This document shows, piece by piece, positions 19,790 through 35,098 of a stretch of 53,961 bases of DNA. The number at the start of each line of letters is the position of its first letter. Within the stretch, counting starts at the first letter, position 1. The notes under the pieces are model-generated. The model made no database searches, was not told where the DNA came from, and was given only the letters and a program-made list of their open reading frames with translations. Both the position numbers and the translations under genes were made by a program. Source of the stretch: an uncultured Burkholderiales bacterium (GTDB lineage: Bacteria > Pseudomonadota > Gammaproteobacteria > Burkholderiales > JALYOK01). The DNA lies in contig CAZAWU010000004.1 of assembly GCA_964488915.1 (NCBI GenBank), positions 1 through 53,961 of the forward strand. Direction: 5' to 3'.

Positions 19790-20092
19790 ATGGCAAAGCA
19801 GGCGGGCGCAGAAGATAACAGAGATATATTTGAGAAGGCGCTAGATAGCGCGCCTGTCATTGGTGCCGCCATCGGCATGACCGTTGGTGGCGCCATCGGT
19901 AGGAAGCTGGCGCGTAATGCTGCATTGAAAAAATCAAATTTGTTTGGAGAGGGGCGGCGATCAGGAACGCTAGATAAAGCGCTTCGCACGGCAGGATTTG
20001 TTGGCGGTGGTGCTGGCGTTGGGGGCCTTGTCGGGCTTTCGGGTGGCGTAGCGGCGAAGGCGTCGCAGAAGAAGCGAGGCGCGCGTAAATGA
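19790..20092 (+). CDS. Glycine-zipper protein, paralogue A
   Basis: DIFEKAL motif, two GxxxG-rich hydrophobic segments, basic tail. Confidence 0.75.
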   Translation: MAKQAGAEDNRDIFEKALDSAPVIGAAIGMTVGGAIGRKLARNAALKKSNLFGEGRRSGTLDKALRTAGFVGGGAGVGGLVGLSGGVAAKASQKKRGARK

Positions 20093-20403
20093 CCGCAGTC
20101 ACAACGATCACCGGCGGCATTGGTCCCGGCAGTCACCAATTCACGAACATCACGACCGCCACGACCACAACCGTGAAGTCAGGCAGCGGCACGCTTGTGC
20201 GTATCGTGAACAACAAGAAGGTCGCGAGCGGTGTGGTCACGATCTACGACAACACGGCCGGCAGCGGTACGAAGATCGGAACGATCACGAGCCCGGCCAC
20301 GTTGCTCGACAATCAGCAGGTGTATGAATACGGCGTCGCGTTCACGAACGGTCTGACCATCGTGACGGCGCAGGCCGATGACCTGACGGTTGTCTGGGAC
20401 TGA
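20089..20403 (+). CDS. Thr-rich beta-sheet protein, probably virion structural
   Basis: T/G/V-rich composition; in late operon. Confidence 0.7.
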   Translation: MTAVTTITGGIGPGSHQFTNITTATTTTVKSGSGTLVRIVNNKKVASGVVTIYDNTAGSGTKIGTITSPATLLDNQQVYEYGVAFTNGLTIVTAQADDLTVVWD

Positions 20404-20930
20404 TGCCGTACAACGGCCTTCGAGCTAAGCGCGGTCGCGAGCGTCTGGCGCAGGCTCTCATGCAAAAGGATTTCAACCCCAGCCTGCCGGTCGATAACCC
20501 GCGCGTGACCTCGCCTTGGGGTATGCGCACGCACCCGATCCTGAACACGAAGAAGTTTCACGACGGCATCGACTACGGTGTACCGCAAGGCTCGCCGATC
20601 TACGCAAGTGACGATGGGTACATCAGCGCGGCAGGCTCAAGCGACCCGGTGCACGGAACATCCGTGACGGTGAAGCATCCGAGCCGCAAGGGCACATACG
20701 AAACGCGCTACCATCATATGAAGAAGATGTCGAAAGCGGGGCTCAAAGGTGGTTGGGTGAAAAAGGGTGACATCATCGGCTATTCCGGCAACACAGGCCG
20801 ATCGACCGGGCCGCACCTTCATTACGGCATGTGGTTAGGGAAGCAATCCGTTGATCCAGGCTCGTTTGAGAGCATCAGAGGGCTAAGCGATGCGGATATT
20901 GCGCGCATGACGAAACCTAAGCGCACGTAA
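20403..20930 (+). CDS. M23-family peptidoglycan endopeptidase
   Basis: FHDGIDYG (HxxxD) and TGPHLHY (HxH). Confidence 0.92.
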   Translation: MPYNGLRAKRGRERLAQALMQKDFNPSLPVDNPRVTSPWGMRTHPILNTKKFHDGIDYGVPQGSPIYASDDGYISAAGSSDPVHGTSVTVKHPSRKGTYETRYHHMKKMSKAGLKGGWVKKGDIIGYSGNTGRSTGPHLHYGMWLGKQSVDPGSFESIRGLSDADIARMTKPKRT

Positions 20931-23560
20931 TGGCCAAGAAGAGACGCCTGAAATACGGCGCCGCCCTGCTCGACAACGAACCAAGCTCAGCCAAGCCGTC
21001 CGATGACGCACGCACGAGAGAGGCGCGCGCATACAAGCATTGGATGGAAGAAATCGACGCGGCGAAGAAGGAGTTCAAGGACTACTGGGCTCGCGGCCGC
21101 AAGATCGTCAAGCTGTACAAGGACGATCGCAAGAGCAAAGGCGAGGTCATCGGATCAGCCAGCGACCGCATGAATATCTTGTGGTCGAATGTGGAGACGT
21201 TGAAGCCGGCGCTTTACAGCAAAACGCCGATGCCGAACGTGTCGCGACGGTTCATGGATAGTGACCCCGTGAGCCGTACCGCGGCCATGATCCTTGAGCG
21301 CTGCCTGGTCACGGTGATCGAGCTAACCGACATCGATTACCCGCTCTCGCGCGCTCGCGACGACTATTTGTTGCCCGGCCGCGGCACGGTGTGGATCAGG
21401 TTTGCGCCACAGAAGGCGATGATCCCGTATCGGGAGCCGGTCACGAAGATCGATCTTGGAAGCCGTGCCGTTTATCGCCCGTTCAAGGGTGGGGACGAGA
21501 TACCGGAAGACAAGATCAAGGAGGACGAGGAGGGGCTCTACTACGAGGGTGAGCCCGAGGAGCAAATCCTAGCCTACGGCCTCGATCTCGATCACCTTTT
21601 GTGGACAGACTACCTGCACGAACCCGTCAACGATTGGACGAAGATCGGCTGGCAGGCAAAGCGCGTGGATATGAAGCGCTCGAAGCTGATCAAGCTGTTT
21701 GGCGAAGAGAAGGGCCGCAAGGTCAAGCTCAACAAGACGTTCAACGCGCGACCGAAGGAAGAGGGCGCGGACGGTGGCGGCGACCGAGGCAAGCCCGATT
21801 GCGCCGAGGTGTGGGAGATTTGGTCTAAGGACCACAAGTGCGTTTATTGGGTCACGGACGGCCTGCCGGATGAATTGCTCAAGCATGAGGAAGACCCACT
21901 AGGATTGCATGACTTCTGGCCGTTGCCGCGCCCGCTCTTTGCGACCACGACGACAGACAGCCTCATTCCGACACCTGATTACGCGCTCTATCAGGATCAA
22001 GCGGAACAGCTCGACAAGCTCACGGACCGCATTCGGCTATTGATCGAGGCGTTGCGTGTGGTTGGCGTCTACAACGCCGAGATGGCGTCGCTTGATCAGC
22101 TATTGAACGAGACCGGCGAGAACCAGATGGTTCCGGTCGATAATTGGATGACGTTCGCACAGTCGGGCGGCTTGAAAGGCAACCTCGACTGGTTGCCGAT
22201 CGAGATGATTGCGACGGTGCTGACGCAGTTGTTTAGCGCTCGTGCGCAGATCAAGAACGACCTCTACGAAATCACGGGCATCAGCGACGTTATTCGCGGC
22301 GCAACGGCACCTGAAGAGACGGCGACGGCACAGCAGATCAAGGCCAACTTTGGCAATCTGCGTTTGCAGGCGCGGCAAGGCGAGATGGCGCGGTTCGCTC
22401 GCGACACCATTCGCAAGATGGCCGAGATCATTGCGGAGCACTATTCGGAAGAAGCCCTGATCGAGATGTCGGGCATTCTTTCGATGGACGAGTTCAAGCA
22501 GACCGGCGACCCGCAGAAGGATGCGGCGGCGCAGATGAAGGTCAAGCAAGCCGTCACGATGCTGAAATCGGACAAGCTGCGGACGTTCAAGGTCGATATC
22601 GAGACGGATGCAACGGTTGCGCCGGATCAGCAGAAAGAGAAGGAAGCGCGCGTCGAGTTCCTGAGTGCAGTCGCGCCGTTTCTCGAGAAGGCTGCGATGG
22701 TCGGTGCGCAGGCGCCGCAACTCGTGCCGCTGTTGCTCAAGATGCTCGACTTTGGCGTGAAGGGTTTCCGCGCCGGTCGCACGCTTGAGAATGCGATCGA
22801 AGAAACGATCGGCATGGCCGAGAAGATGCAGCAGGAGGCGCAAGCCAGCCCGCAGCAAGCGCCCGCCGATCCGGCCGCGGAAGCAATGGCCGCGAAGCTT
22901 GCGGCCGAGACTGAGAAGCTCAAGGCCGAGTTGGCGCAGTTGCAGGCCGAGGCGCAGGTTAAGGCACAGGAGAACGAGGCCAAGAAGCTTGAGGCTGAAG
23001 AGCGTCGCAATCGTGAGCGTGAGACGTTCCGGCAAACGATGCTCAAGGTAACGCAAGAGGTCGAGAACCGCCGCCTTGAGCATGAGAAGCAGTGCAAGCT
23101 ACTTGAATTGCAGATTGCGAAGGCCGAACTCGAATTGCAGCAACTCGGGGCGTCGCCTGAGCTACCGCAGGAGCAGGTTGGCGCAGATGCAGCCGAGCAT
23201 GTGGCCCGCGCATCGGCGGCGCAAATCCAATTGCTGGAGAACAAGAAGAAGTTCGTTCAGTTGCAGCAGGAATTGGCCGGCATCGAAGGGCTTGGCTCTG
23301 CATTGAGCGCGATCAGCACTGACGACATCGGCACGCCGTTGTTCAACAAGCCGAAGAAGCGCACGAAGAAGTTCACGCAATTCATCCACGACGAGCAGAC
23401 CGGCAAGATTATCGGCGGCACGACGGAAGAGATCGAGGTCGAGGACAACGCGCCGGACAACAACCCGGACGGCGGTTCCAAGCAGCACCAATTCGTCAGA
23501 GACGATAGCGGCGCGCTTGTTGGCGTGATGACCGAGGACAGAGAGGAAGACGCGGCATGA
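20930..23560 (+). CDS. Portal protein with long C-terminal coiled-coil extension
   Basis: 876 aa after terL; NILWSNVETLKPALY, DLYEITGISDVIRG, TATAQQIK; heptad-rich tail. Confidence 0.85.
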   Translation: MAKKRRLKYGAALLDNEPSSAKPSDDARTREARAYKHWMEEIDAAKKEFKDYWARGRKIVKLYKDDRKSKGEVIGSASDRMNILWSNVETLKPALYSKTPMPNVSRRFMDSDPVSRTAAMILERCLVTVIELTDIDYPLSRARDDYLLPGRGTVWIRFAPQKAMIPYREPVTKIDLGSRAVYRPFKGGDEIPEDKIKEDEEGLYYEGEPEEQILAYGLDLDHLLWTDYLHEPVNDWTKIGWQAKRVDMKRSKLIKLFGEEKGRKVKLNKTFNARPKEEGADGGGDRGKPDCAEVWEIWSKDHKCVYWVTDGLPDELLKHEEDPLGLHDFWPLPRPLFATTTTDSLIPTPDYALYQDQAEQLDKLTDRIRLLIEALRVVGVYNAEMASLDQLLNETGENQMVPVDNWMTFAQSGGLKGNLDWLPIEMIATVLTQLFSARAQIKNDLYEITGISDVIRGATAPEETATAQQIKANFGNLRLQARQGEMARFARDTIRKMAEIIAEHYSEEALIEMSGILSMDEFKQTGDPQKDAAAQMKVKQAVTMLKSDKLRTFKVDIETDATVAPDQQKEKEARVEFLSAVAPFLEKAAMVGAQAPQLVPLLLKMLDFGVKGFRAGRTLENAIEETIGMAEKMQQEAQASPQQAPADPAAEAMAAKLAAETEKLKAELAQLQAEAQVKAQENEAKKLEAEERRNRERETFRQTMLKVTQEVENRRLEHEKQCKLLELQIAKAELELQQLGASPELPQEQVGADAAEHVARASAAQIQLLENKKKFVQLQQELAGIEGLGSALSAISTDDIGTPLFNKPKKRTKKFTQFIHDEQTGKIIGGTTEEIEVEDNAPDNNPDGGSKQHQFVRDDSGALVGVMTEDREEDAA

Positions 23561-23904
23561 TGCGTATTTCCATCGACGAACTGGCCAAGTCCGTTGCGGA
23601 CGAGGCGCATCGCAGAACTGGTTTGCTCATAGGCTACGACGCCACGATGGACGATGTGGGGCAGCGTGTGCTGTTCACGTTCGTGCGTGATGGGAAGTAC
23701 GTCTACGAAAACGCTTCATATGAAGAGTTGAAGCGTCCGCCCGGCTGGCAGCCGATATTTGACCGGCTCGTGGGTGTGGTGTGCGAAGGAACTGTGCGCC
23801 GTGAGAACCGCGGCGAGCCGGAAATCCCGATAGTGATCGATCAGCGCGGCAAGCGGCATTTCCGCATGGTCGCAGAGACCGGTTACCTCGGTCTTAGGAG
23901 ATAG
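23557..23904 (+). CDS. Hypothetical protein
   Basis: ATGA-coupled to portal. Confidence 0.65.
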   Translation: MMRISIDELAKSVADEAHRRTGLLIGYDATMDDVGQRVLFTFVRDGKYVYENASYEELKRPPGWQPIFDRLVGVVCEGTVRRENRGEPEIPIVIDQRGKRHFRMVAETGYLGLRR

Positions 23905-23907
23905 CAA

Positions 23908-24336
23908 GTGGCGTCCTACAACAAGCATCAAGCCTTCGTCGAGCATTTGGCCGAGGGGGTTCATAACTTCACGTCCGATGCGACGTGCACGCCGACAGTG
24001 GCATTGACGGCAGCGGCAAACGCACCCGTTGCCACGAACAGCGTGCTCGCGGATTTGACGCAAGTCAGCTACACGAACCTCTCGGCGCGCGTCATTACGG
24101 TCACCTCATCTTCGCAGTCGTCCGGCACATACAAACTCGTGCTCGCCGACTTGGTGCTGACCGCATCGGGCAGTGTGGCGACGTTCCGTTATGTCGACGT
24201 GTACAACGATGATCCAACGTCGCCGGCCGATCCGCTCATTGCGTGGTACGACTACGGCGGGGACGTGAGCTTGGCGAGCGGTGAGACGTTCACGGTCGAT
24301 TTCGACGCCACCAACGGCTTTTTTCAGATCGCTTGA
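23908..24336 (+). CDS. Putative virion structural protein
   Basis: GGAG SD; beta-rich, LIAWYDYG...GETFTVDF. Confidence 0.7.
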   Translation: MASYNKHQAFVEHLAEGVHNFTSDATCTPTVALTAAANAPVATNSVLADLTQVSYTNLSARVITVTSSSQSSGTYKLVLADLVLTASGSVATFRYVDVYNDDPTSPADPLIAWYDYGGDVSLASGETFTVDFDATNGFFQIA

Positions 24337-24342
24337 GGTCAC

Positions 24343-24597
24343 ATGGCAGCGCTGACCGCACAACAACGCACAGACGCACATGCTGATTGGCAGCGGACGT
24401 TTGCGAGCGCCGAGACGATTGCTGTTGAAAGGGCTGACGTGAAGGCAGCGTTTGATGCAATGGACGATTGGCTTGATTTGAACGAGACAACCTTGAACCT
24501 CGCCATTCCCCTGCCGGCACGAACCAACCTGACGGCGGCACAGAAGCGGCGACTGTTCTTGTGGGTTGTCCGCAAGCGCTACGAAACGGGAACATAA
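24343..24597 (+). CDS. Hypothetical protein
   Basis: GAGG SD. Confidence 0.7.
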   Translation: MAALTAQQRTDAHADWQRTFASAETIAVERADVKAAFDAMDDWLDLNETTLNLAIPLPARTNLTAAQKRRLFLWVVRKRYETGT

Positions 24598-24600
24598 AAC

Positions 24601-25092
24601 GTGGCAACCGGGAATACTTTAGCCGTCTTTCTGCCGATGGGTTACGAGCCGCCATCGTCGAACTATGCGACGCTCGACACGCGCAATGGCCATCCCGTTC
24701 TCGACTTCGATACGACGACGCAAGAGACAGCTATTTGGACCGGCGTCTTGCCGCGTCACTATGCTGGCGGTGGTATTACGGTGTACATCCATTGGGCCGC
24801 GACGAGCGCGACTTCCGGCACGATAGGGTGGGACGTCTCGTTCGAGCGCATCGGCGACGGCTCGCAAGATATCGACAGCGACGGATTTGCAACGGCGCAG
24901 ACCGTCACCGCGGCAACCGTGCCCGGCACATCCGGCAACGTGGACATCACGAATGTGGCGATCACGGACGGCGCGAACATTGACAGCGTTGCGGTCGGTG
25001 AGGCGTTCCGCATCCGTGTGCGCCGCGATGTGGCGAACGACACGGCGTCGGGCGATGCGGAGTTGATTGCGGTCGAGCTGAAAGAGACCTAA
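24601..25092 (+). CDS. Stand-alone beta-sandwich domain paralogous to the tail-fibre C-terminus
   Basis: Aligns by eye with the last ~170 aa of 47388-48950. Confidence 0.7.
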   Translation: MATGNTLAVFLPMGYEPPSSNYATLDTRNGHPVLDFDTTTQETAIWTGVLPRHYAGGGITVYIHWAATSATSGTIGWDVSFERIGDGSQDIDSDGFATAQTVTAATVPGTSGNVDITNVAITDGANIDSVAVGEAFRIRVRRDVANDTASGDAELIAVELKET

Positions 25093-25838
25093 TGGCCGTT
25101 TATATGAATGTGGCCAACGTGGACGTTGTTTATTCGTCCTCGGCCGTGGTCACGGCGGCGCCGATCACGATGGCTTGCTGGTACAAGAAGGACAGCCATC
25201 CGGACGGCAACTACCACGTTGTTATGGGCATCAACTCCACCGGTGCCCCTGAGAACGGATGGATTTTGTTCGTCGACAACAGCGACGTGCTGAATTTCCA
25301 GACACTGGATGACGGCGCAAGCAGCACGGCGCAGCAGTCAGGAAGCGGCGGTTCAGGGTGGCATCACGCATGTGGTGTGTCGTCGGGTGCATCAAGCCGG
25401 TTTGCTTATCGCGACGGCAGTGCAGGTACGGAAAATACAGGGACGCAAACACCAACGACTGCGGGACTTAATCGCACCTCGCTTGGGAACTACTACTACG
25501 CACTTGGCGGCAATTGGTCGGGCATCAACCAGACCCAGAGCGTTGCCGAAGGTGCGGTGTGGAACGTAGCGCTGACCGCTGACGAGATTACGAGCTTAGC
25601 GCGCGGCTATTCGCCGTTGCTGGTCAGGCCATCGGCGCTCGTTTGGTATGTGCCGGCTGTGCGCACGTTGATTGATCTGAGGGGTAACGCGATATCAGGG
25701 GCAAACTCTGGCATCGTCGATCACCCGCCGATATTGAACTACAAACCAGTAGCGAACATCTTGGGCATTGCGCCGGTCGCGTCGAAGGCGATGCCGATCT
25801 TTAGCCGCACGCCAAGGTTCTTGAGGAGAGCTGCATGA
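25092..25838 (+). CDS. LamG/concanavalin A-like jelly-roll protein
   Basis: ITMACWY...WHHACGV...YRDG...AVWNVALTADEITSL. Confidence 0.85.
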   Translation: MAVYMNVANVDVVYSSSAVVTAAPITMACWYKKDSHPDGNYHVVMGINSTGAPENGWILFVDNSDVLNFQTLDDGASSTAQQSGSGGSGWHHACGVSSGASSRFAYRDGSAGTENTGTQTPTTAGLNRTSLGNYYYALGGNWSGINQTQSVAEGAVWNVALTADEITSLARGYSPLLVRPSALVWYVPAVRTLIDLRGNAISGANSGIVDHPPILNYKPVANILGIAPVASKAMPIFSRTPRFLRRAA

Positions 25839-26326
25839 GCCGTTTCTATTCCGCGCCACTGAGCGGCACAATTACCAATGCTGGCGGAGACACGGACATC
25901 TTCAGCATCCAACCGGCCGACGACAAGCCGATCAGGCTGTGGGGCTTCACGCTCGGCAACGTGTCTGAGGTAGGTGACACGGCGGAAGAGGCATTGCGCA
26001 TAACGGTCAAGTACGTGCCGGCCACTTTCACGGTTGGCTCGGGTGGCTCTGCGGTCACGGCAGTCTCGCCGGTTGATGATCCAACTGGCGCGGTGTGGGG
26101 TGCAACGGTGCGCGTGAACGACACGACGGTGGCAACCTCAAGCGGCACGGTAATCGTGCGCGACGAATTTGCATGGAACATCCGCAACTCGCCGTATGAG
26201 CATTGGTACCCGACGGAACGGTTTTGCCCTCTGGCAATTCAGACAAATGGCATCGTTATTAGGTGCGAGACCACACCGGCGGACGACTTTACGTTTTCCG
26301 GCACGGTGTACTTCGAAGAACTGTAA
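25835..26326 (+). CDS. Putative virion structural protein
   Basis: GAGGAG SD; T/G-rich beta composition. Confidence 0.7.
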   Translation: MSRFYSAPLSGTITNAGGDTDIFSIQPADDKPIRLWGFTLGNVSEVGDTAEEALRITVKYVPATFTVGSGGSAVTAVSPVDDPTGAVWGATVRVNDTTVATSSGTVIVRDEFAWNIRNSPYEHWYPTERFCPLAIQTNGIVIRCETTPADDFTFSGTVYFEEL

Positions 26327-26332: not shown

Positions 26333-27319
26333 ATGGCGCGGTTTTTCTATAAGCGCGTTGCAAAACGACGTTTAAGACGCCGTGTCTGGGCTCTTTCAAG
26401 ACCGCTTGTTCACTACACGATAACAGCGGCACAAGGCAGTTACACACTATCCGGCCAAGCGGCGAACTTGCTGCAAGGCTATCTGGTCAGCGCAGGGCAA
26501 GGCTCATACAGCCTAACCGGCCAAGCGGCGACGTTCTCGCGAACGTACATCGCTGTTGCTGGCCAAGGCTCGTACTCGCTAACCGGTCAAGCGGCCGGGC
26601 TCAATCAGGGCTATGGCTTCGCGGCTGATCAGGGCAGCTACGCGCTAACCGGTCAAAGCGCGAACCTGCTGACCGCGCAAATACTGACCGCAGCGCAGGG
26701 CTCTTACGCGCTAACCGGACAAAGCGTCGATCTCCGCAAGGGGCGCACGCTCACGGCCGAGCAAGGCAGCTACGCACTAAGCGGCCAGGACGTCACGTTC
26801 GGTCGCATCTACGTTATGGCCGCAGGGACGGGCTCTTACAGCCTGACCGGTGTAAACGCTGAGCTTAGCGTCCCTGCGGCTGTACCTACTCCAGAGCCTG
26901 CCGCACCAGGCGCAGGTGGTGGTCCGGCCGCGTACTGGTATCGCGGCAAGTACCGCAAGGAAGTGCGGCGCACGATCGATGCGGCGATACGCGAGCTAAG
27001 CGACATCGGGGAAACCCGCTCGCCGCGGTCCCGCAAGCGCAAGATCAGGCGCGTTGCGCGCGAAGTATCGGACGCACTGCAATTCGACGTGCCGGCGCAA
27101 CTGCACCGTATGCCGGAGTTCAATGCGCTTGACCCGATCAGGCTCAAGTTGCTCGAGACGAGCTTAGCGCTGCGTGAAGCCGAGATGGCCGCAGAGATGC
27201 GCCGTCAGAAGGCGGAAGAGATGCAACGCTTGTTCGCTGAATACGAGGCAACGATGCAGCGTATTGAGCGTGAGGAAGAGGAAGAGGCGATAGCCTTAAT
27301 CATGGTGATGGCAGCGTAA
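26333..27319 (+). CDS. 22-aa-repeat fibre-like protein with C-terminal coiled coil
   Basis: Seven AxQGSYxLTGQ units; acidic helical tail. Confidence 0.8.
   Translation: MARFFYKRVAKRRLRRRVWALSRPLVHYTITAAQGSYTLSGQAANLLQGYLVSAGQGSYSLTGQAATFSRTYIAVAGQGSYSLTGQAAGLNQGYGFAADQGSYALTGQSANLLTAQILTAAQGSYALTGQSVDLRKGRTLTAEQGSYALSGQDVTFGRIYVMAAGTGSYSLTGVNAELSVPAAVPTPEPAAPGAGGGPAAYWYRGKYRKEVRRTIDAAIRELSDIGETRSPRSRKRKIRRVAREVSDALQFDVPAQLHRMPEFNALDPIRLKLLETSLALREAEMAAEMRRQKAEEMQRLFAEYEATMQRIEREEEEEAIALIMVMAA
26426..26887 (+). repeat. Seven degenerate 66-bp coding repeats
   Basis: Recurring CAAGGC-TCx/AGx-TAC-...CTAACCGGxCAA. Confidence 0.9.
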
Positions 27320-27321: not shown

Positions 27322-27663
27322 ATGGCACTGCAAAGAAACTGCGATGTGTGCGCCGAGAAATACGGCGTAGGCGATCCGCGTAACTGGCACGATCCAAACA
27401 ACTGGCCTGCCGAGTGCATGGGCCATTATCGCAAACGGCGCGGCGAGGATCGGATCGGTCTTCAGATCATGAAGGACATCGAGCCGTACAAGAACGTCGT
27501 TGACGGCAATGTCATCGGTGGGCGCAAGCAGCACAGGGATTTCTTGAAGGCGCGCGGCCTTGTCGAGGTTGGCAACGAGAACGTTGAAAAACGTTACGAG
27601 CCGGTCCCGGGCTTGCGCGACGACTTGAAGCGTGCGCTGCGAGATGTGCACGGCGACTTGTGA
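27322..27663 (+). CDS. Conserved small phage protein with N-terminal CxxC
   Basis: CDVC; VIGGRKQHRDFLKARGLVEVGNE. Confidence 0.75.
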   Translation: MALQRNCDVCAEKYGVGDPRNWHDPNNWPAECMGHYRKRRGEDRIGLQIMKDIEPYKNVVDGNVIGGRKQHRDFLKARGLVEVGNENVEKRYEPVPGLRDDLKRALRDVHGDL

Positions 27664-28037
27664 GCAAAGACCCGCCGGGCCTGGACATCTTCGAGATTGC
27701 TTTAGGCAATCCGCCAGATGAGGAGATGGCGCCGCGCACACTGGCTGATCGCGCCATTGAGGAAGCTGGCGTCGCTGGTGGCACGATCTTGGGCGCCATT
27801 TTGGCGCGGCGCATAGGTCGAAAGAGGCTGCACAAGCTTGTACGAGATGAGCACGCAGCGCGTATTGCCAAAGACAAAGCGCGATCGAAGTTGGTTGATG
27901 ATGCGATCGAAGGGGCGGCGCGTCTTCGTGATGCGCGCACGATCGGAGGCGCGGTAGTGGGCGCAGCCACGGGTGGCATGATTGGTGAACATGCCTCGAA
28001 TGAGGCGCGGCGCTGGCGTAAGCGCGCAAGGAAGTAG
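27660..28037 (+). CDS. Glycine-zipper protein, paralogue B
   Basis: DIFEIAL motif, two Gly-rich hydrophobic segments, basic tail. Confidence 0.75.
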   Translation: MSKDPPGLDIFEIALGNPPDEEMAPRTLADRAIEEAGVAGGTILGAILARRIGRKRLHKLVRDEHAARIAKDKARSKLVDDAIEGAARLRDARTIGGAVVGAATGGMIGEHASNEARRWRKRARK

Positions 28038-28054: not shown

Positions 28055-28078
28055 GGGAAGCGAGTAACCCAAACCTCG
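28055..28078 (+). promoter_or_regulatory. 24-nt leader motif, copy 1
   Basis: GGGAAGCGAGTAACCCAAACCTCG, identical at 32986. Confidence 0.6.
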
Positions 28079-28090: not shown

Positions 28091-29212
28091 ATGGCAGGAC
28101 GGCGCACTGCGTCTGACGACGCTGCGGAAGACTTTGATGTCATGGAAGCCGAACCGATGACTGGCGGCGACTATGACGATGACGACAGCGATACGGGGGA
28201 AGATTGGGACGCCAACGAATTGGCGCGCGGCGACGGCGAGAAAGAGGGCGAGCCGCTCGAGGATGAAGAGGAAGAATTAGAGGCGTCTGACGAAGACGAG
28301 GAAGACGGCCCTGACGACGAAGACGACGAGGAAGAGGAAAGTGACGACGAAGAACTAGAGGCGATAGACCCGCCGGCGAATTGGCCGGAACAGGAGCGCC
28401 AGTTCTTTGCCGAGCTCCCCCCGCAGTTGCAGCACGCTTACATGGCGCGCGCGCAGCACATGACGGCCGATTACACCCGCAAGACACAAGCGCTCGCGGG
28501 CGAGCGGCAACAGATTGCGCAAGAGCGTCAGACAATCGGCGATTTGCAGCGCGTGATTGGTCCGCATCTACAGAATTGGGCGTTGAACGGCATGGGGCCG
28601 GCGCAAGCCGTACAACAGCTTATCGCCCTGTCCGACATGGCCACACGAGACCCGGCCGGCTTCATTCAGTATTTCGCCAATCTTCGCGGCGTCAACCTCC
28701 AAGCCCTGCAGCAACAGCAGGAGAACGAGTACGTTGACCCGCAAGTACAGGTGCTGCGGCAGCAGCTTGCTCAAGTTCAGGCCCATTTGAACCAATCGAG
28801 CCAGCAGCAACAACAGTACCAGCAGCAGCAGTACCAGCAGCAGTATCAAACCGCGTTCAACACGACGAGCGCGGCCATCAACGACTTCGCGCGCCAATCT
28901 GACCAGAACGGAAATCCGCTCTATCCACACTTCGACGAGGTAATCGACGAAATGGCGGGGCTGATCGAGAGCGGTCAGGCGCGTTCCATGCCCGAAGCCT
29001 ACAAGAAGGCGGTTTGGCTCAATGACAACACGCGGCAGAAACAGCTTGCCCGTTCGCGAGCAGAAGCGAATGCGAAAGCCCGCCGTCGTGCTGAGAGAGC
29101 CTCACGCGCAGCTTTCTCGCTTACCGGTGCATCTGGGGCCAATGGCGCATTTAACCCAGGGGATCTATCGATCCGCGACACGATTACATCGGCGTGGAAT
29201 GGAGACCTCTGA
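28091..29212 (+). CDS. Scaffolding protein
   Basis: Very acidic N-terminus, DYTRKTQALA coiled coil, Gln-rich; directly before capsid gene. Confidence 0.8.
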   Translation: MAGRRTASDDAAEDFDVMEAEPMTGGDYDDDDSDTGEDWDANELARGDGEKEGEPLEDEEEELEASDEDEEDGPDDEDDEEEESDDEELEAIDPPANWPEQERQFFAELPPQLQHAYMARAQHMTADYTRKTQALAGERQQIAQERQTIGDLQRVIGPHLQNWALNGMGPAQAVQQLIALSDMATRDPAGFIQYFANLRGVNLQALQQQQENEYVDPQVQVLRQQLAQVQAHLNQSSQQQQQYQQQQYQQQYQTAFNTTSAAINDFARQSDQNGNPLYPHFDEVIDEMAGLIESGQARSMPEAYKKAVWLNDNTRQKQLARSRAEANAKARRRAERASRAAFSLTGASGANGAFNPGDLSIRDTITSAWNGDL

Positions 29213-29244
29213 CCCATCAACTCATTTTGGAAGGCTAAGGAAGA

Positions 29245-30210
29245 ATGCCTAGTCCCAACCTGTCCGAAATCACCACGACCACGATGCGCTATCGGTCGGG
29301 GAAACTTCGTGACAACATGTCGAAGAACATCGCTTTGCTGATGCGTCTTCGCGACAAGGACAATGCGTCTCCCGTCTCTGGCGGCGAGCACATTGTTGAA
29401 GAGCTCGAATACGCGGAAAACAGCACGTTCATGTACTACTCGGGTGACGAGGTACTGAACGTGTCGGCTTCCGACGTGTTCACTGGCGCAACGTTCGACT
29501 GGAAGCAATGCGCAGCCGCGGTCAAGATCAACGGCCTCGAACTGCTCAAGAACTCCGGTCGCGAGAAGGTCATTGACCTACTTGAAGCCCGCATCAAGAA
29601 CGCCGAGAAGACCATGCTCAACAACATGAGCACTGGCGTCTACTCGGACGGGACCGGCACGGGCGGCAAGCAGATCGGCGGCCTGCAACTGCTTGTGTCC
29701 GACGCGGGCACCGGCACCGTTGGCAATATCAACTCGTCCACGTACTCGTTTTGGCAAAATGCGGTATACGACTTCTCGACGAATGGCGTCGCGGCTTCGG
29801 CCCTGACCATCCAGGACGCGATGAATTCGCTCTACCTCTCGCTCGCGCGCAATCGCGACGTGCCCGACCTGATCGTGGCCGATAACACGTACTATGGGTA
29901 CTACTGGAAATCGCTTCAGGCGATCCAGCGCATCACGGACGAAAAGATGGCAAGCGCAGGCTTCCAGACCTTGAAGTTTATGGGCGCTGACGTCGTGTAC
30001 GACGGCGGTTTCTCGGGTACGGCCCCGAGCGCTCATATGTACTTCTTGAACACCGACTATGTGAAGTTCCGGCCGCACCGGGACCGCAACATGGTCCCGC
30101 TGAACCCGGATCGGTTCTCAACAAACCAAGACGCAATGGTGAAACTGATTGGATGGGCTGGCAACATGACCATCTCCAATCGGTCGCTCCAGGGCGTCAT
30201 GGTCGCGTGA
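29245..30210 (+). CDS. Major capsid protein
   Basis: 321 aa after scaffold; MPSPNLSEITTTT...KLRDN...ALL; WKQ-x-AAAV; GTGTGGKQIGGL. Confidence 0.88.
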   Translation: MPSPNLSEITTTTMRYRSGKLRDNMSKNIALLMRLRDKDNASPVSGGEHIVEELEYAENSTFMYYSGDEVLNVSASDVFTGATFDWKQCAAAVKINGLELLKNSGREKVIDLLEARIKNAEKTMLNNMSTGVYSDGTGTGGKQIGGLQLLVSDAGTGTVGNINSSTYSFWQNAVYDFSTNGVAASALTIQDAMNSLYLSLARNRDVPDLIVADNTYYGYYWKSLQAIQRITDEKMASAGFQTLKFMGADVVYDGGFSGTAPSAHMYFLNTDYVKFRPHRDRNMVPLNPDRFSTNQDAMVKLIGWAGNMTISNRSLQGVMVA

Positions 30211-30227
30211 TAGGGGAGGTTTGAAAC

Positions 30228-30725
30228 ATGGCTTACCACATCACGACTGGCGAAATCGGCGGCCAGGCAATCAACGAAACGTCGACAACGCAGTATCACC
30301 CGCTTGGGAAGATCGTTACTGCACGCGATCCGACCTACGGCGAGGGCGAGTTCATCTATCTGTTGGGCGTCGCATCAACGGTAGTTGGCTCTGTGGTCAC
30401 GTACCACCCCTCGACGTGGCAGACGGCGCTTTGCCCGGTGGGCAATGCGATCCCGAAGCCTATCGCGGTGGCTATGTCGGCAAACGTGGCGGCGTCTTAC
30501 GGCTGGTATCAAATCAGCGGTTTGGCGGTTGCTGCGAAGTCGGCGACGATTTGCTGCGTTGCCGGCGCTGGTATCGCGGTCAAGACGATTGGCTTGATCT
30601 CGAAGACCGGCTCGCTTGCTGAAATCCAGGGTGGCGTGTGCGCTACGACGGCTTCGGCCGCAACGGGCCGCACGACGGTTCTGATTTCAATTCACAGGCC
30701 ACACATGCAAGGACGGATTACATAG
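30228..30725 (+). CDS. Capsid-associated (decoration/cement-like) protein
   Basis: Follows capsid gene with strong SD; PLG...GEFIY...YGWYQISG. Confidence 0.65.
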   Translation: MAYHITTGEIGGQAINETSTTQYHPLGKIVTARDPTYGEGEFIYLLGVASTVVGSVVTYHPSTWQTALCPVGNAIPKPIAVAMSANVAASYGWYQISGLAVAAKSATICCVAGAGIAVKTIGLISKTGSLAEIQGGVCATTASAATGRTTVLISIHRPHMQGRIT

Positions 30726-30729
30726 GCTT

Positions 30730-32166
30730 ATGCTTATCACTACAACTGATGGGGCGGCGAACAGCCGCCCCAGCTCTTACCGCGTGCCGGAGGTTGACCT
30801 CATGGTGCGCTACCAAAACCCGGACGCCAAGGCGGGCCTGACTATTCCGGTTCACCTTGTCTGCAATACGCCGGAAGAGGATTTACTCGCCAACATCAAG
30901 GCTAACAGCGCTAACCCTGCCCGTGGATGGATTGCGACAAGCGCGGCTCACGAGAGCAAGGCCGTGCTGTGCGGCTCCGGTCCGAGTTTGGCCGATGACC
31001 TGGCGGTTGTTCGTGCCATGCAAGCGGATGGCGCGACTGTGTTCGCGATGAACGGTGCGGCCAACTTCTTGCGGCGCAACGGCATCATGGCCGACTACCA
31101 AGTGATTGCGGATGCGCGCGAGAGAACGGCCGACCTGGTTGGCGAGGCGAACGGGCACATATTTGCAAGCCAAGTGCACCCGGAGTGCTTCAAGCGCGCG
31201 CCGGAAGCCATAATGGTTCACGTCAATTACTACTCAGACCATACCGAATTTTTGACCATCATCGACGGCGTTGGACCAAATGAGTTTGTGCTCGTTGGTT
31301 CTCACGGGTCAGTTGGGAATGTGGCGCTCGGAATTGCGTACGCGATGGGCTTCCGTGATCTGCACGTGTTCGGGTACGACAGTTCGTTTCGTGAAGAAGC
31401 TGGGCACGCGTTTGATCAGCCGATGAATGTCACAGAGCCGGTTTGCGAAGTTGAGTATCAGGGCAAGAAGTACCGCTGCACGTTCACGATGAAAAGCCAG
31501 GCGGATGTGTTCCCACGGCTTGCCTACGAACTGGAAGAGATGGGGGCGCGGTTCACGGTTTACGGGTCAGGGTATTTGCAAGATCGCTGGTATGGCGAGA
31601 AGGCCAAGACGCTGGAGCAGCGCGAGGCGGACAAGTATCGCGAGATGTGGGACCACGCGCAGTATCGCAAGCTCATTCCCTCGCTTGATCACGTTGACGC
31701 TGCGATCGAGAAGCTAAGGATACGGCCAGGCGACGGGCTTGTTGATTTCGGCTGTGGAAGCGGCCGGGCAACGAAGATGTTTCAGGACAAGGGCATCTAT
31801 GCGGTGGGCGTCGATATCGCTCGCAACGCCGTGGACGCTGATCTCAAGGGCGCGTTCGTCGAGGCGTGCCTCTGGAAATTGCCGCCGCTTCGTGCGGAGT
31901 GGGCATTTTGTGTCGACGTGATGGAGCACATACCAACTGAGCGCGTGGACGATGTTCTTGCGAGCATCGCGCGCACGATCGACTTGCGCGGCGCGTATTT
32001 CGCGATTGACAGTGCGCCTGATGAAATGGGCGTGTTGATTGGACAGCCGTTGCACCTGACCGTGCGGCATCCGGCATGGTGGGCACGGCGGCTTAGAGAC
32101 CACTTCGCGCATGTTGAAGAATGTGACGGCGGGGTGTTTGTCTGTTCGAAGAAGTTAGCGGCCTAA
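30730..32166 (+). CDS. Maf/MptE-like (DUF115) domain fused to class I SAM methyltransferase
   Basis: VLCGSGPSL, VFAMNGA, GFRDLHVFGYDS; then LVDFGCGSG, GVDI, CVDVMEHIP. Confidence 0.8.
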   Translation: MLITTTDGAANSRPSSYRVPEVDLMVRYQNPDAKAGLTIPVHLVCNTPEEDLLANIKANSANPARGWIATSAAHESKAVLCGSGPSLADDLAVVRAMQADGATVFAMNGAANFLRRNGIMADYQVIADARERTADLVGEANGHIFASQVHPECFKRAPEAIMVHVNYYSDHTEFLTIIDGVGPNEFVLVGSHGSVGNVALGIAYAMGFRDLHVFGYDSSFREEAGHAFDQPMNVTEPVCEVEYQGKKYRCTFTMKSQADVFPRLAYELEEMGARFTVYGSGYLQDRWYGEKAKTLEQREADKYREMWDHAQYRKLIPSLDHVDAAIEKLRIRPGDGLVDFGCGSGRATKMFQDKGIYAVGVDIARNAVDADLKGAFVEACLWKLPPLRAEWAFCVDVMEHIPTERVDDVLASIARTIDLRGAYFAIDSAPDEMGVLIGQPLHLTVRHPAWWARRLRDHFAHVEECDGGVFVCSKKLAA

Positions 32167-32185
32167 TCGCTATCCTCCCGACTTG

Positions 32186-32215
32186 GCGGCTGGCGCAAGT
32201 CAGCCGTCCTTTTTT
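32186..32215 (+). terminator. Intrinsic terminator-like hairpin
   Basis: 9-bp stem with GCAA tetraloop followed by CC and six T. Confidence 0.6.
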
Positions 32216-32227
32216 GGAGTGCACGAA

Positions 32228-32479
32228 ATGCACGGACGTGATTGCAACAACTGCAGCTATTTCGGTCACGAGCGTGTCATGTTGAGGGGTACTGAATACG
32301 GCTCGTGTCGCGTCGACGGGCCGTCGACTAGCTCCACATATATCGGCTCAGGTTTCTACGGAGAGGCTTGGGTCGGTCAGTGGCCGTTCGTCTCGCAGAA
32401 TGCTTGGTGTGGGCGGTTCGTCAAAGATACGAGCCGTGTCGCAACAAGCGTGTCAGTCGGTAACCCAACACTCGAATAG
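32228..32479 (+). CDS. Small Cys-rich protein
   Basis: CNNC...C...WCGRF; GGAG SD. Confidence 0.7.
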   Translation: MHGRDCNNCSYFGHERVMLRGTEYGSCRVDGPSTSSTYIGSGFYGEAWVGQWPFVSQNAWCGRFVKDTSRVATSVSVGNPTLE

Positions 32480-32489
32480 GAGAATACCC

Positions 32490-32810
32490 ATGGCCTTCGA
32501 TGTCCCCTTCGGCAAGAAAGTGCGCATCCCCTTCACGTTTCTCGACGCTAACAGCCTTGCCGCCAAGGTTGACGGCACGCCTACTGTTTCCACGACGTTC
32601 GGCTCGGTTGTTGAGGTGGTGAGCGACGGCGCCGGCGGCTTCAGCGCGCTTGTTGACCTCGGTGGCGTAGGTTCCGCGTCCGTGTCTGGCGTGGCCGACG
32701 TCGATCTCGGCTCGGGCGTGAAAGAGCTTGCGTTCACGCTCGGCGATTTCAACGGGTTGGCGTCGCCTGAAGCGACAGCGGTCAGCGTCGGTAACCCGGT
32801 TGTTGAATAA
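32490..32810 (+). CDS. Small beta-sandwich (Ig-like) protein
   Basis: AGGAG SD; alternating hydrophobic beta pattern. Confidence 0.7.
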   Translation: MAFDVPFGKKVRIPFTFLDANSLAAKVDGTPTVSTTFGSVVEVVSDGAGGFSALVDLGGVGSASVSGVADVDLGSGVKELAFTLGDFNGLASPEATAVSVGNPVVE

Positions 32811-32971
32811 TGAACCGCGTGGCCCGAGCGCCCAAGTATCCGTTCAAACCGCGTGAGCATGTGCAATGGGGCGGTGTGCTCCTTGGGACCGTTCCAATTG
32901 CTGCGATGCTCATTGTGATGGTTGCGGCGATGGCTTGGGATGCTTGGGCCACGCGAGCTTTTTGCAGCTAG
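32810..32971 (+). CDS. 53-aa single-pass membrane protein
   Basis: Manual translation MNRVARAPKYPFKPREHVQWGGVLLGTVPIAAMLIVMVAAMAWDAWATRAFCS; TAATG coupling. Confidence 0.55.
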   Translation: MNRVARAPKYPFKPREHVQWGGVLLGTVPIAAMLIVMVAAMAWDAWATRAFCS

Positions 32972-32985
32972 CCGCACCCGCGGCA

Positions 32986-33009
32986 GGGAAGCGAGTAACC
33001 CAAACCTCG
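32986..33009 (+). promoter_or_regulatory. 24-nt leader motif, copy 2
   Basis: Identical to 28055-28078. Confidence 0.6.
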
Positions 33010-33022
33010 AAAGGAAGAAGCA

Positions 33023-33679
33023 ATGTCAATGCAAGAAATCGGTTCGCCTACCGCAATCCCGCGCAAGGCTGACTTCTCGACGGTCATTCCGCGGTTCTTC
33101 ACGCAGGAAATCGCAACGGATCAGGTGGACGGGCAAACCGGCCTCAAGGTTTATCGCACGGTTGAGTACGTCGAATTGCTGATCCCAGGCGACAAGGGCG
33201 CAGCGCCGGTGAAGCGCGTGAACGATCAGATCCGTGCGATGTACCGCGATCAGTATGCGCGGTGGAAGGAGCAAGGCGGCGGCGCTGATATGGTCGGCGA
33301 CGGAATACCGCTCAAGCTGTGGCCCGGCATCAAGCAGGAAGTCGCGCGCGGGCTTGAGAACATCAACATTTGGACCGTGCAGCAGCTTGCTGCGATGTCG
33401 GATAGCCGGTGCACGCAGCCGGGAACGATGGGCTTGCGCGATTTGCGCGACAAGGCGCGTGCGTTCATTGAGAGCGCATCACAGACGGCGCCGATTGCGG
33501 CGTTGCAGGCGCAGCTTGACGACATGAAGAAGCGTGAGACGCTTCGGGACGATCAACTGAAGCAAGCGCTTCAGCGTGCCGAAGAGGCTGAGGCGAAACT
33601 GGGCGGCGTGAACGTGAAACACGAGACCATGCCGGAATTGAACACGCCGCGCGGGCGGCAAAAACAGGAAAGGGAATAG
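33023..33679 (+). CDS. Conserved head-region protein of unknown function
   Basis: AAAGGA SD; C-terminal coiled coil. Confidence 0.75.
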   Translation: MSMQEIGSPTAIPRKADFSTVIPRFFTQEIATDQVDGQTGLKVYRTVEYVELLIPGDKGAAPVKRVNDQIRAMYRDQYARWKEQGGGADMVGDGIPLKLWPGIKQEVARGLENINIWTVQQLAAMSDSRCTQPGTMGLRDLRDKARAFIESASQTAPIAALQAQLDDMKKRETLRDDQLKQALQRAEEAEAKLGGVNVKHETMPELNTPRGRQKQERE

Positions 33680-33685
33680 ACTACA

Positions 33686-34045
33686 ATGCCCATTCAAACC
33701 CAATTGATGAGCGCGGGCTTGCCGGCTGGTACGGCGCAGGCGCTCAATCGCGTTGCAACGTTTGCGCTGGCTGGCTCGACGCAATCGGATGGTACGAAGA
33801 TTACGGCTCCAACGGCGATCTTTACGTCCGGGTCCGGTAGCGCGGTGTTGCCGACGCCGAATGCGGGCGACGTCATCAACTTCGTGAACGTGTCCGGTAA
33901 CACCGGCACGATCTTCCCGGCCAGCGGCGGCACGATCAACGCTCTGTCTCAGGACGCGTCTATCTCGATTGCAACGGCGAAGTCGTGCCTGTTCGTCGCG
34001 CAGTCGGGCACGCAGTGGCGCACCATCCCACTAGTCCCATCGTAG
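33686..34045 (+). CDS. Putative virion structural protein
   Basis: T/G/A/S-rich beta composition. Confidence 0.65.
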   Translation: MPIQTQLMSAGLPAGTAQALNRVATFALAGSTQSDGTKITAPTAIFTSGSGSAVLPTPNAGDVINFVNVSGNTGTIFPASGGTINALSQDASISIATAKSCLFVAQSGTQWRTIPLVPS

Positions 34046-34055
34046 GCCAACTCAC

Positions 34056-34754
34056 TTGAGTTTGCTTACGTTGGTGAACGCCGCACAGGCGTTGCTCAAC
34101 CTTCCCGTTACCACAACCGTGATGACGAATACCGGCGAGGCGCAGGTCCAATTGCGCCAAATCGCCATTGCGGAAGGACGGGCGCTTGCTCGCGTTCATC
34201 CGTGGCAAAGGCTGATCACGGAAAACTCGTTCACGACGACCGCGACGCAAGAGCAAACCGGCCACACCATGCCGACCGATATGGGATGGATACTCAACGA
34301 GACCATCTACAATCGGACGAACACGGAGCAAGTGAATGGGCCGCTAAGCCCGCGCATGTGGCAAGAGCAACGCGCCGTCGGGACGTCGATCACGTGGTCG
34401 CAGTACCGGTTGCGGGGCAACTCGATCTACTTCATTCCCGCGCCTACGGCCGGGCAATCGGTGTACTACGAATACGTCTCGAACAAGTGGTGTCAGTCGT
34501 CAGGCGGAACAGCGCAAGAATACTGGCAGGCCGATAGCGATACGGGGCGGCTTGACGAGTACGTCATGACGCTTGGCGTCGTGTGGCGGTGGAACAAGGC
34601 CAAAGGCCTGGCCTACGAGCAGGAATACAACGACTACATGGAAGAACGGCAGCGGTTGATCTCGCGTGATGGAACGCGGCGAACGCTGAGTGTGGCTGGG
34701 CCGCTTAGGTGCGGTCTTGGTAAGGGCAACGTACCCGAAGGATCTTGGACATGA
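34056..34754 (+). CDS. Head-tail adaptor (tail tubular A-like)
   Basis: Position and size; YEYVSNKW, LGVVWRW-x-KAKGLAY. Confidence 0.7.
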   Translation: MSLLTLVNAAQALLNLPVTTTVMTNTGEAQVQLRQIAIAEGRALARVHPWQRLITENSFTTTATQEQTGHTMPTDMGWILNETIYNRTNTEQVNGPLSPRMWQEQRAVGTSITWSQYRLRGNSIYFIPAPTAGQSVYYEYVSNKWCQSSGGTAQEYWQADSDTGRLDEYVMTLGVVWRWNKAKGLAYEQEYNDYMEERQRLISRDGTRRTLSVAGPLRCGLGKGNVPEGSWT

Positions 34755-35098
34755 GTAAGAATGACAGTCGCGACGTGTTTGAGAAAGCGCTTGACGATGA
34801 TCACGTGCTGACTGGTGATCAGGCGGTGGGCCTTCTTATTGCTGGCGTTCTCGGCGGAACGATTGGTGGTAGGGCGCTCGGTAAGCGCCTTGCGTCAAAG
34901 GCGAAAAGGAAGGCTGAGGATGCTGCGATTGCTCGTGCCAATCGTGACGGCACCAAGGGGTGGGGTCGCGGTAAGGACGCAAGGCTCATTGAAGATCGAC
35001 ACACAAGAATGATCAATGCCGGGATTGGCGGTGGTGCTCTTGGCGGAGGTGGTGCGGTTTATGCATCGACGCTTAAGAGGGACAAGAAACGCAAATGA
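34751..35098 (+). CDS. Glycine-zipper protein, paralogue C
   Basis: DVFEKAL motif, two Gly-rich segments, basic tail. Confidence 0.75.
   Translation: MSKNDSRDVFEKALDDDHVLTGDQAVGLLIAGVLGGTIGGRALGKRLASKAKRKAEDAAIARANRDGTKGWGRGKDARLIEDRHTRMINAGIGGGALGGGGAVYASTLKRDKKRK

Follow-up and report, generated by a model that had tools for sequence, protein, structure and literature searches.

The phage genome analysed here, the 53,961-nucleotide contig CAZAWU010000004.1 (54 kb, 59% GC; hereafter the window), encodes among its structural genes three small proteins, P1, P2 and P3. Their genes are functional and belong to a family, not described before, that we named GZ. GZ is restricted to a single clade of uncultured, Mx8-like podophages that possess an SU10-type adaptor, from which all examined members come, and its copies are rapidly gained, lost, tandemly duplicated and relocated.

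A family with a conserved N-terminal peptide and two glycine zippers

The three open reading frames (ORFs) lie on the + strand (Table 1) and share one order of features, just as a sequence-only reading of the window had described it: a D[IV]FE.AL motif leads to 14-18 uncharged residues rich in Gly and Ala, to which GRK or GKR is joined; a basic linker then connects to a second Gly-rich stretch (16-23 aa), and a K/R tail closes the protein. In P2 the motif is weaker and apparently duplicated, LDIFEIAL being followed by a second degenerate copy, RTLADRAIEE, that abuts the first Gly segment. A regular expression for the motif, run over all six frames of the window, matched the P1, P2 and P3 ORFs only. 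That reading had allowed that the similarity might vanish after correction for composition. It did not, because both composition-adjusted BLASTP (P1-P3, E=1e-7; P2-P3, E=9e-6; P1-P2, E=0.007) and shuffling gave significant values, the Smith-Waterman scores of the pairs exceeding 2000 of 2000 global shuffles (z 6.5-8.4) and 1995-2000 of 2000 shuffles that preserve the composition of each 15-aa window (z 4.0-4.4).

Outside the window, a first profile search recovered a 94%-identical orthologue of P2, two more P2-like proteins and one P3-like protein. Word-indexed protein searches did not reveal the extent of the family: a three-sequence profile found 3 outside homologues only, and a 29-sequence profile was swamped by Gly-rich words and added one. 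It emerged from an exhaustive HMMER search of 1.84 billion cluster representatives, in which 82 proteins of 83-167 aa matched end to end at E<=1e-3, a lower bound that corresponds to at least 82 clusters at 50% identity. P1 itself scores E=5e-24 against the family hidden Markov model. The mean column identity is 16%, and the consensus reads M-A-K-K-x-x-E-D-N-R-D-[IV]-F-[ED]-K-A-L-D-Y-A-P, xxGxxxGGxxGRR, a variable basic stretch, GxxxGxxxG and, at the stop codon, K-K-R-R-K. A typical member thus begins, about 10 residues from its start, with an almost invariant acidic amphipathic peptide of 12 residues (E-D-N-R-D-[IV]-F-[ED]-K-A-L-D), continues with a 16-residue Gly/Ala zipper ending in GRK or GRR, a variable, strongly basic helical linker and a second Gly zipper, and closes with a KKRRK C-terminus.

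It seemed conceivable that the ORFs are not genes at all, and that their similarity is a by-product of Gly/Ala/Arg-rich frames in GC-rich DNA. Longer antisense ORFs do cover P1 (19606-20139) and P2 (27512-28072), the composition is biased, and a C-terminal profile also matches reversed sequences. However, the windowed shuffles remain significant, and P2 and its orthologue in the related contig L006 (94% protein identity), the sole orthologue pair close enough for testing, have a ratio of nonsynonymous to synonymous substitution rates (dN/dS) of 0.06; two further near-orthologue pairs gave 0.18 and 0.33. Moreover, the 82 homologues are full length, with an invariant, non-repetitive motif and conserved termini, and the indels among relatives described below match the sense ORFs exactly and not the antisense ones. 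The chance that the ORFs are non-genes is thus negligible, and we regard this explanation as refuted for practical purposes. Since length-based ORF picking favours the longer antisense frames, gene callers that favour length may miss P1 and P2.

The family is missing from the annotation of Pfam, PHROGs and NCBIfam, and in their sources its members are named 'hypothetical protein' or not at all. To call it unrecognised, as had been done from the sequence alone, was therefore justified: nothing exceeded the thresholds of Pfam, PHROG or NCBIfam, the PDB held no relative, and nothing was found in 50,697 phage records. Measured against the curated gathering thresholds, a Pfam scan of P1, P2 and P3 and of 85 members gave only sub-threshold glycine-zipper matches. 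P1 scored 18.2 bits against Gly-zipper_Omp (PF13488; cut-off 25); P2 matched glycine-zipper families at residues 94-114 and scored 18.0 (cut-off 25), 17.6 (24.2) and 17.5 (28.9); P3 matched none. At E<=0.01, PF13488 matched 20/85 members, PF05433 19/85 and PF13441 8/85, with a best E of 2.5e-6. A PHROG scan gave one marginal match among the 85 members and none above threshold for P1, P2 or P3; an NCBIfam scan gave weak matches to glycine-zipper lipoproteins only, and a PDB profile search low-complexity chance matches only. A tblastn search of the phage records with a consensus-like member returned no match, where a match to the motif only could not have reached E<=1 and divergent members are possible.

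What GZ has in common with PF13488, PF05433 (Rick_17kDa_Anti, a 2TM glycine zipper) and PF13441 (YMGG) are GxxxG-type repeats in short Gly/Ala-rich helices, with weak matches in about a quarter of its members. Apart from falling below the gathering thresholds, it differs from these families in that its two zippers lie 30-60 residues apart and not in one compact domain, and in its N-terminal motif and basic tail, which are foreign to them. It also has no lipoprotein signal: the N-terminus is charged, unlike a signal peptide, a lipobox-cysteine signal peptide of the SlyB/PCP type is absent, and none of the 85 members contains a cysteine.

Within the N-terminal peptide, the R and the D that follows it are invariant in 80/80 members; the preceding D is found in 79/80, F in 77/80, K in 76/80, and L and the final D in 73/80 each. 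I, F, A and L are so spaced that they line one side of a short helix, a hydrophobic face with paired charges at its flanks. Because codon choice at these positions is unconstrained (Asp is encoded by GAT or GAC, Phe by TTT or TTC, Arg by five codons and Leu by four), the constraint must act on the peptide and not on DNA or RNA, and a role of the motif as a DNA or RNA element was rejected on this ground and by an Rfam scan, which returned nothing. The motif is, furthermore, a portable module, since two unrelated small ORF families without Gly zippers, found in the relatives L007 and L008, carry the same peptide near their C-termini (...DTRDVFEKVFGG*, ...DTRDVFEKALEANN...). In L069 (8774-9208) and L003 (16919-17329), the GZ N-terminus with its motif is fused to a g130-like middle. 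By its sequence, g162 is possibly a second carrier of the peptide, although the link is weak; its orthologues retain RDIWDKV, WDVWDKL or RDDIYTVLE. For the KKRRK tail, we considered a role as a mere carrier of a Shine-Dalgarno sequence: some tails encode GGAGGAAG before the next ATG, but many use CGT, CGC or AAA without such a sequence, and the idea was rejected as an account of the tails in general.

Table 1. Positions of the GZ members of the window, their parts, and related ORFs
Feature	Position	Strand	Remarks
P1, family member	19790..20092	+	100 aa; ATG start; slot large terminase / g104-M23 peptidase
P1, N-terminal peptide motif EDNRDIFEKALD	19811..19846	+	
P1, first Gly/Ala-rich uncharged segment SAPVIGAAIGMTVGGAIG	19847..19900	+	then RK
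P1, second Gly-zipper segment and basic tail	19988..20089	+	..KKRGARK
P2, family member	27660..28037	+	125 aa; GTG start overlaps g113 stop; slot g113 / scaffold gene
P2, degenerate motif PPGLDIFEIALG	27672..27707	+	
P2, first Gly-rich segment AGVAGGTILGAILA	27765..27806	+	then RRIGRK
P2, second Gly zipper TIGGAVVGAATGGMIG and tail	27939..28034	+	RRWRKRARK
P3, family member	34751..35098	+	115 aa; ATG start; ATGA overlaps with upstream SU10-type adaptor gene and downstream g162
P3, motif NDSRDVFEKALD	34760..34795	+	
P3, first Gly-rich segment QAVGLLIAGVLGGTIGG	34820..34870	+	
P3, second Gly zipper and tail	35009..35095	+	..KRDKKRK
g162	35095-35583		
g162, motif-like N-terminus RAGRDIWDKVRM	35113..35148	+	RAGRDIWDKV in g162; below the position-specific scoring matrix (PSSM) cut-off used for the motif
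g130	35583-35975		
g394	35976-37160		
Motif-ended ORFs without Gly zippers	L007 13873-14061, 15308-15664; L008 14876-15058, 15982-16374		peptides DTRDVFEKVF.., DTRDVFEKA[LF]E..

Gain, loss and relocation of GZ copies

By its capsid protein, the window is related to Bradyrhizobium phage ppBjS10J-1 (57% identity), to Myxococcus phages Mx8 and Mx9 (47-49%) and to Stenotrophomonas phage BUCT555 (47%); searches of Mx8 and ppBjS10J-1 yielded no GZ relatives. We fetched 82 loci around capsid-gene relatives and searched them with an iterated local profile. GZ occurred only in loci that combine a capsid protein at least 78% identical to that of the window with an SU10-type adaptor (at least 56% identity) and g394, while about 60 more distant relatives, as well as L010 (81% capsid identity, without g394), had no members. 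A back-translated motif pattern found 24 stretches in 2.9 million IMG/VR contigs, and all those that encode GZ members belong to the clade; likewise, the contigs of three sampled representatives (P0013, P0009 and P0045) and of the P3-like homologue P0005 have the gene order of the clade. These phages were found in sand-filter, biofilter, bioreactor and groundwater metagenomes.

Comparison of the window with L006, a 32-kb contig of 89-95% DNA identity, revealed gene-sized indels that coincide with GZ members. The two genomes, 91% identical, show seven ORF-precise differences; P1 and P3 are absent from L006, L006 has further copies that are absent from the window (9357-9653, 10383-10799 and 16373-16723), and only P2 is common to both. 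In L006/X7, the read joint at the site of the missing P1 is 19771->20083. The P3 insert spans one ATGA to the next, and at the empty P3 site of L006 the adaptor stop is joined directly to the g162 start. In addition, X5 contigs from a groundwater metagenome skip P2 exactly (27659->28034), and X5 and X7 contigs skip P3 exactly (34750->35095, 4 shared bases). P1, P2 and P3 are thus all polymorphic among relatives of at least 88% identity. P1 was probably lost from L006, because the empty site retains AGCGTAAATGACC, which matches the last P1 codons. The L006 copy at 10383-10799 is flanked by the repeat GGAA[A/G]TAGG, which arises from the K-stop codons at the ends of P2 and of this copy, indicating tandem duplication or unequal exchange; L006 carries a tandem GZ pair. 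In L110 (1481-2640), three tandem copies lie directly upstream of a TerL gene 91% identical to that of the window, and here the identical upstream spacers of copies 2 and 3 and the identical C-terminal codons of copies 1 and 2 point to recent tandem duplication. A gene-sized indel outside the GZ family is a 200-aa gene of L006 (13557-14159) between g165 and the MptE-like gene, which is absent from the window (30741->30778).

A genome contains from 1 to at least 6 GZ copies, and in all the copies use at least 13 slots, each at a gene junction within the structural module: upstream of TerL (the tandem triple in L110), TerL / g104 or M23, g328 / g113, g113 / scaffold, g165 / MptE-like, g53 or g98 / g218, g119 / adaptor, adaptor / g162, g162 / M23 or g394, M23 / g394, g394 / g512, g512 / g436 (with a divergent copy at g436 / g140) and upstream of g500. 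The view taken from the window alone, that each copy marks a module boundary, proved too narrow in the light of these many junctions and has to be widened to any late-operon junction. All copies point in the same direction as the late structural genes, frequently with ATGA or TAATG start/stop overlaps with their neighbours. A scan for consensus sigma-70 promoters found none belonging to GZ copies, the one sigma-70-like site in 18 kb being on the opposite strand, and a scan for intrinsic terminators found none adjoining P1, P2 or P3. In L008/L108, L082, L113/L114 and L069/L003, a GZ copy lies directly beside the M23 peptidase gene.

Other elements of this region are not GZ members. The M23 peptidase gene (window 20403-20930) moves as well: it lies beside terminase/portal in four genomes (the window, L006, L082, L113) and follows the adaptor in four others (L007, L008, L003, L069), and in most of them a GZ copy is its immediate neighbour. 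The strongest terminator-like hairpin of the structural region (32185-32208; 10 bp stem with 7 G-C pairs, T-run) follows the MptE-like gene and overlaps the predicted g98 start. An exact 24-nt repeat, GGGAAGCGAGTAACCCAAACCTCG, for which 0 occurrences are expected by chance, is present at 28055-28078 and 32986-33009 and is kept in L006. Its copies lie about 4-13 nt upstream of the scaffold start, depending on the start codon, and 14 nt upstream of g218, both just downstream of slots used by GZ; the repeat may be a late regulatory or leader element.

The nearest relatives of a copy are often found in another slot. The nearest relatives of P3, with 49% identity over the full length, occupy the g165/MptE slot of L003 and L013; the g119/adaptor copy of L007 and the g328/g113 copy of L008 are 64% identical over 73 aligned residues, and the adaptor-side copy of L009 and the g512/g436 copy of L015 are 44% identical. 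G+C content at third codon positions (GC3) is 0.51 in P1, 0.62 in P2 and 0.51 in P3, compared to 0.61-0.81 in their neighbours, and ranges in GZ overall from 0.39 to 0.70, mostly <0.60, compared to 0.61-0.81 in flanking genes. We looked for signs of mobility in several ways. For 15 copies, the longest inverted match between the ends was 4-7 nt, which is within the range of shuffles (mean 3.6-5.7, maximum 6-10); direct repeats or target duplications at the ends were not found beyond start-codon context, so that transposon-like ends were rejected. The three cross-slot pairs named above are the best that we found, none of them near-identical, and Pfam scans detected no nuclease, recombinase, transposase or other enzymatic domain in GZ. 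The proposal that the three ORFs represent a small mobile cassette spread within the genome can thus be kept in part. Cassette-like turnover is borne out by the ORF-precise presence and absence of copies and by nearest relatives in other slots, while inverted repeats and near-identical cross-slot copies are lacking; since no mobility machinery or end structures were found, the spread is shown on an evolutionary scale only, and active transposition is not shown.

One may ask whether such copies are selfish ORF-sized elements that settle at gene junctions with little or no benefit to the phage, their conserved ends serving their own propagation or tolerance. Their ORF-precise presence and absence, the at least 13 slots, a GC3 consistently below that of flanking genes and the location of nearest relatives in other slots would suit this idea, as would the intein and HNH gene described below, which imply that selfish elements circulate in the same genome. 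On the other hand, GZ has neither the enzymatic domains nor the terminal inverted repeats, target duplications or near-identical copies of such elements, purifying selection on the protein is strong, its middle region included, and the motif is kept as protein and not as DNA; we therefore consider a purely selfish nature improbable. Slimmer still is the chance that GZ is a recombinase-less, ORF-only cassette that actively inserts at the stop/start junctions of a polycistronic operon, perhaps via start-codon microhomology and phage single-strand annealing recombination, and whose portable virion-addressing peptide would load any new or fused copy as cargo.

Judged by analogy, tiny single-ORF insertions by which near-identical phages differ have their nearest precedent in the mycobacteriophage mobile elements MPME1/2, the inverted repeats of which measure 11 bp. 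Like GZ copies, MPMEs are tiny (about 0.3-0.44 kb) and have no recognisable transposase; they possess inverted repeats (IR-L), occur as identical copies at different sites with a 6-bp filler, and are able to interrupt genes (PMC3029335). GZ differs from them in its lack of inverted repeats, in the divergence of its copies and in that gene boundaries are always respected. A second comparison is with morons, such as lambda bor and lom or the HK97 gp15 exclusion gene among tail genes, which are single-copy and have their own promoter and terminator. Both are accessory genes between essential late genes of otherwise collinear genomes, with a composition unlike that of their neighbours, but GZ is a multi-copy family with conserved termini and without a promoter or terminator of its own.

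Candidate functions of the GZ proteins

While the family and its dynamics are new and solid, the function of GZ is a hypothesis, for which the properties of the proteins provide the starting point. A typical member has about 112 aa, about 21% K+R and a net charge of about +10, which fits contact with DNA; the mean charge is -1.6 for the N-terminal part, +7 for the linker and +4.6 for the tail. The two uncharged segments comprise 16 and 19 residues with a mean Kyte-Doolittle hydropathy of 1.38 and 0.93, and the best 19-residue window averages 1.2, where the usual cut-off is 1.6. A classical transmembrane or holin character is not supported by these sequences, and the membrane-penetrating activity that had been proposed for the three ORFs stays a guess, since by hydropathy the segments fall short of classical membrane helices in both length and strength.

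Even so, GZ proteins might act on the envelope of the infected cell at a late stage without being packaged, as holin/antiholin-like proteins that form pores or time lysis, as cationic disruptors of the outer membrane or as blocks to superinfection, with the zippers embedded in the membrane as hairpins and the basic parts in the cytoplasm. The weak matches to glycine-zipper membrane families noted above (20/85 for PF13488, 19/85 for PF05433) would be in line with this, and so would the frequent position of a copy beside the M23 peptidase gene; an acidic N-terminus (-1.6) before and a basic region (+7) after the first segment would suit an N-out orientation, and the charged C-terminal tail recalls those of holins. 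Holins and pinholins, too, are small, with Gly-rich hydrophobic helices and a highly charged, basic C-terminus, and pinholin S21 68 has a glycine-zipper helix interface. However, the hydrophobic segments of GZ do not amount to a transmembrane helix of about 18-20 hydrophobic residues as in holins, its linker is strongly basic, and if the protein spanned the membrane twice as a hairpin, either the +7 linker or the +5 tail would come to lie outside, contrary to the positive-inside rule. Holins are, moreover, normally encoded by one gene per genome, in a lysis cassette next to the endolysin, whereas GZ genes number from 1 to at least 6 per genome, diverge from one another and are scattered among head and tail genes, many of them far from lysis cassettes; some adjoin M23, but the majority do not. 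The motif also occurs on proteins that have no hydrophobic segment, and at 50471-51042 the window contains a distinct pair of small genes whose products have a hydrophobic segment at the N-terminus. An envelope function is thus a serious alternative, albeit a rather unlikely one.

The reading that we favour, if tentatively, is that GZ members are accessory proteins of late expression, which their invariant N-terminal peptide would direct to a target, probably the virion, where they would be internal or ejected proteins. The data are best matched by a short peptide that would serve for docking and is common to a changeable set of small, very basic proteins, which would be made together with virion parts. 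According to this model, the GZ copies would be co-translated with virion proteins, and the peptide would let all of them dock onto one and the same phage partner, probably the interior of the procapsid, the scaffold or the portal. A changeable set of small basic proteins would in this way be packaged with the DNA, the basic linker and tail lying on it, and would later be ejected, whereupon the two Gly zippers, paired as a helical hairpin or oligomerised, would possibly act on the host envelope.

A precedent for this arrangement is found in the internal proteins of T4 (IPI, IPII, IPIII and Alt), small basic accessory proteins encoded with head genes, which are variable in gene content and diverse, with an N-terminal capsid-targeting sequence as essentially their only common element (PMC3012670). 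GZ likewise has a short conserved N-terminal peptide on diverse small basic proteins, a resemblance of function only, without sequence homology. GZ, for which packaging is putative, has in addition two Gly zippers and a C-terminal KKRRK, occupies at least 13 slots and not one locus, and belongs to a P22/Mx8-like podovirus in whose scanned genes no prohead protease was recognised. In T4, the targeting peptide is removed by a prohead protease, and the I-F-E of the GZ motif would fit the pattern of T4 protease sites, [LI]-x-E. The order of parts in the N-terminal half also recalls the inovirus coat proteins (M13 g8p, Pf3), in which an acidic amphipathic N-terminus is followed by a Gly/Ala hydrophobic helix and a basic, DNA-facing segment; GZ is, however, not homologous to them, is twice as long, has a second zipper and belongs to a tailed phage with an HK97-type capsid.

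The positive charge could also be the whole story, with GZ packaged purely as DNA counter-ions or condensers, or as aids to packaging or assembly, and with no role after ejection. The K+R content of about 21%, the net charge of +10, the KKRRK terminus and the late-operon position would all be accounted for. This would leave unexplained, however, the two conserved Gly zippers, the invariant acidic peptide and the rapid diversification and turnover of copies, and relatives without GZ package their DNA normally, so that we give this explanation little credence.

Several observations weigh against our favoured reading of GZ as addressed, packaged proteins. No prohead protease family was found among those genes of the window that were scanned, nor could a docking partner of a known kind be identified. 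Glycine zippers, besides, are familiar from membrane proteins more than from the contents of capsids. Among the 50,697 phage records there is no cultured relative that carries GZ, and runs labelled as RNA (metatranscriptomes) contained only short contigs of diverged relatives. The co-occurrence of GZ with the g162/g130/g394 block is confounded by phylogeny. In the window, g130 and g394 end in a Gly-rich segment and a basic tail (IIGGGAAAAASAAGYEAGRQSRK; GAALVGGAGLGGAALYGIESHRQKKARKANY), but a C-terminal module common to them and GZ was rejected, as the profile gave no match at E<=1 and the resemblance is visual only. AlphaFold2, run with 8 and with 85 sequences, predicted helical, non-globular structures at low confidence (pLDDT, the predicted local distance difference test, 49.6 and 66.5), and a BFVD fold search returned chance or low-complexity matches only. 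In the model of P1, a helix at residues 11-19 is followed by a long helix at 21-51 (pLDDT 80-89) and a helix of low confidence at 77-94.

Further genes of the window and implications

Several genes of the window outside the GZ family are worth recording. TerL (17158-19368) contains an intein-like insertion at 18389-19228 (CFIDD...VIVSN|C, about 273 codons), which is absent from the 98%-identical TerL of L006; inside it, in a frame that differs from the open TerL/intein frame, lies an HNH endonuclease ORF (18588-19181, 197 aa, HHIDDD...). Between TerL and P1, a 60-aa ORF on the - strand (19454-19636; kept in L006 at 1599-1781) has a signal-peptide-like start, MHKLIVILALITASPALAA..., and may encode a secreted or lipoprotein moron. 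The gene at 26333-27319, between the portal and scaffold genes, encodes a 328-aa protein with about seven repeats of (A/T)AxQGSYxL(S/T)GQxA and a charged, coiled-coil-like tail, which may be a fibre or decoration protein. Among the head genes, a 478-aa fusion of an MptE-like domain (PF01973) and a methyltransferase (30730-32166) is conserved throughout the clade, its domain variants ranging from 263 to 709 aa, and is a possible virion-modifying enzyme. Near the right end, a 190-aa protein with a signal peptide and an outer-membrane beta-barrel match (51049-51621; PF13505, E=2.5e-10) looks like a Lom/Ail-type moron.

Considered as a whole, GZ resembles a set of hyperplastic small accessory genes with a common addressing peptide, in an unusual dispersed layout that respects gene junctions, and its likeness to T4 internal proteins would be one of logic and not of sequence. 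We know of no capsid-targeting tag described for P22/Mx8-like podoviruses; should the GZ peptide indeed address proteins to the virion, the first such tag would be in hand, 12 residues long, by which foreign proteins could be loaded into capsids of this type. GZ would then also represent a repertoire of ejected proteins in the course of diversification, and it is in such repertoires that anti-defence or entry functions are found. Whatever the function, genomes that are 91% identical have only one of seven copies in common, and copies occupy at least 13 slots, all of which respect gene boundaries and translational coupling. GZ thus offers a clean natural model of the gain, loss and movement of small genes within an essential operon where no mobility enzyme is recognisable.

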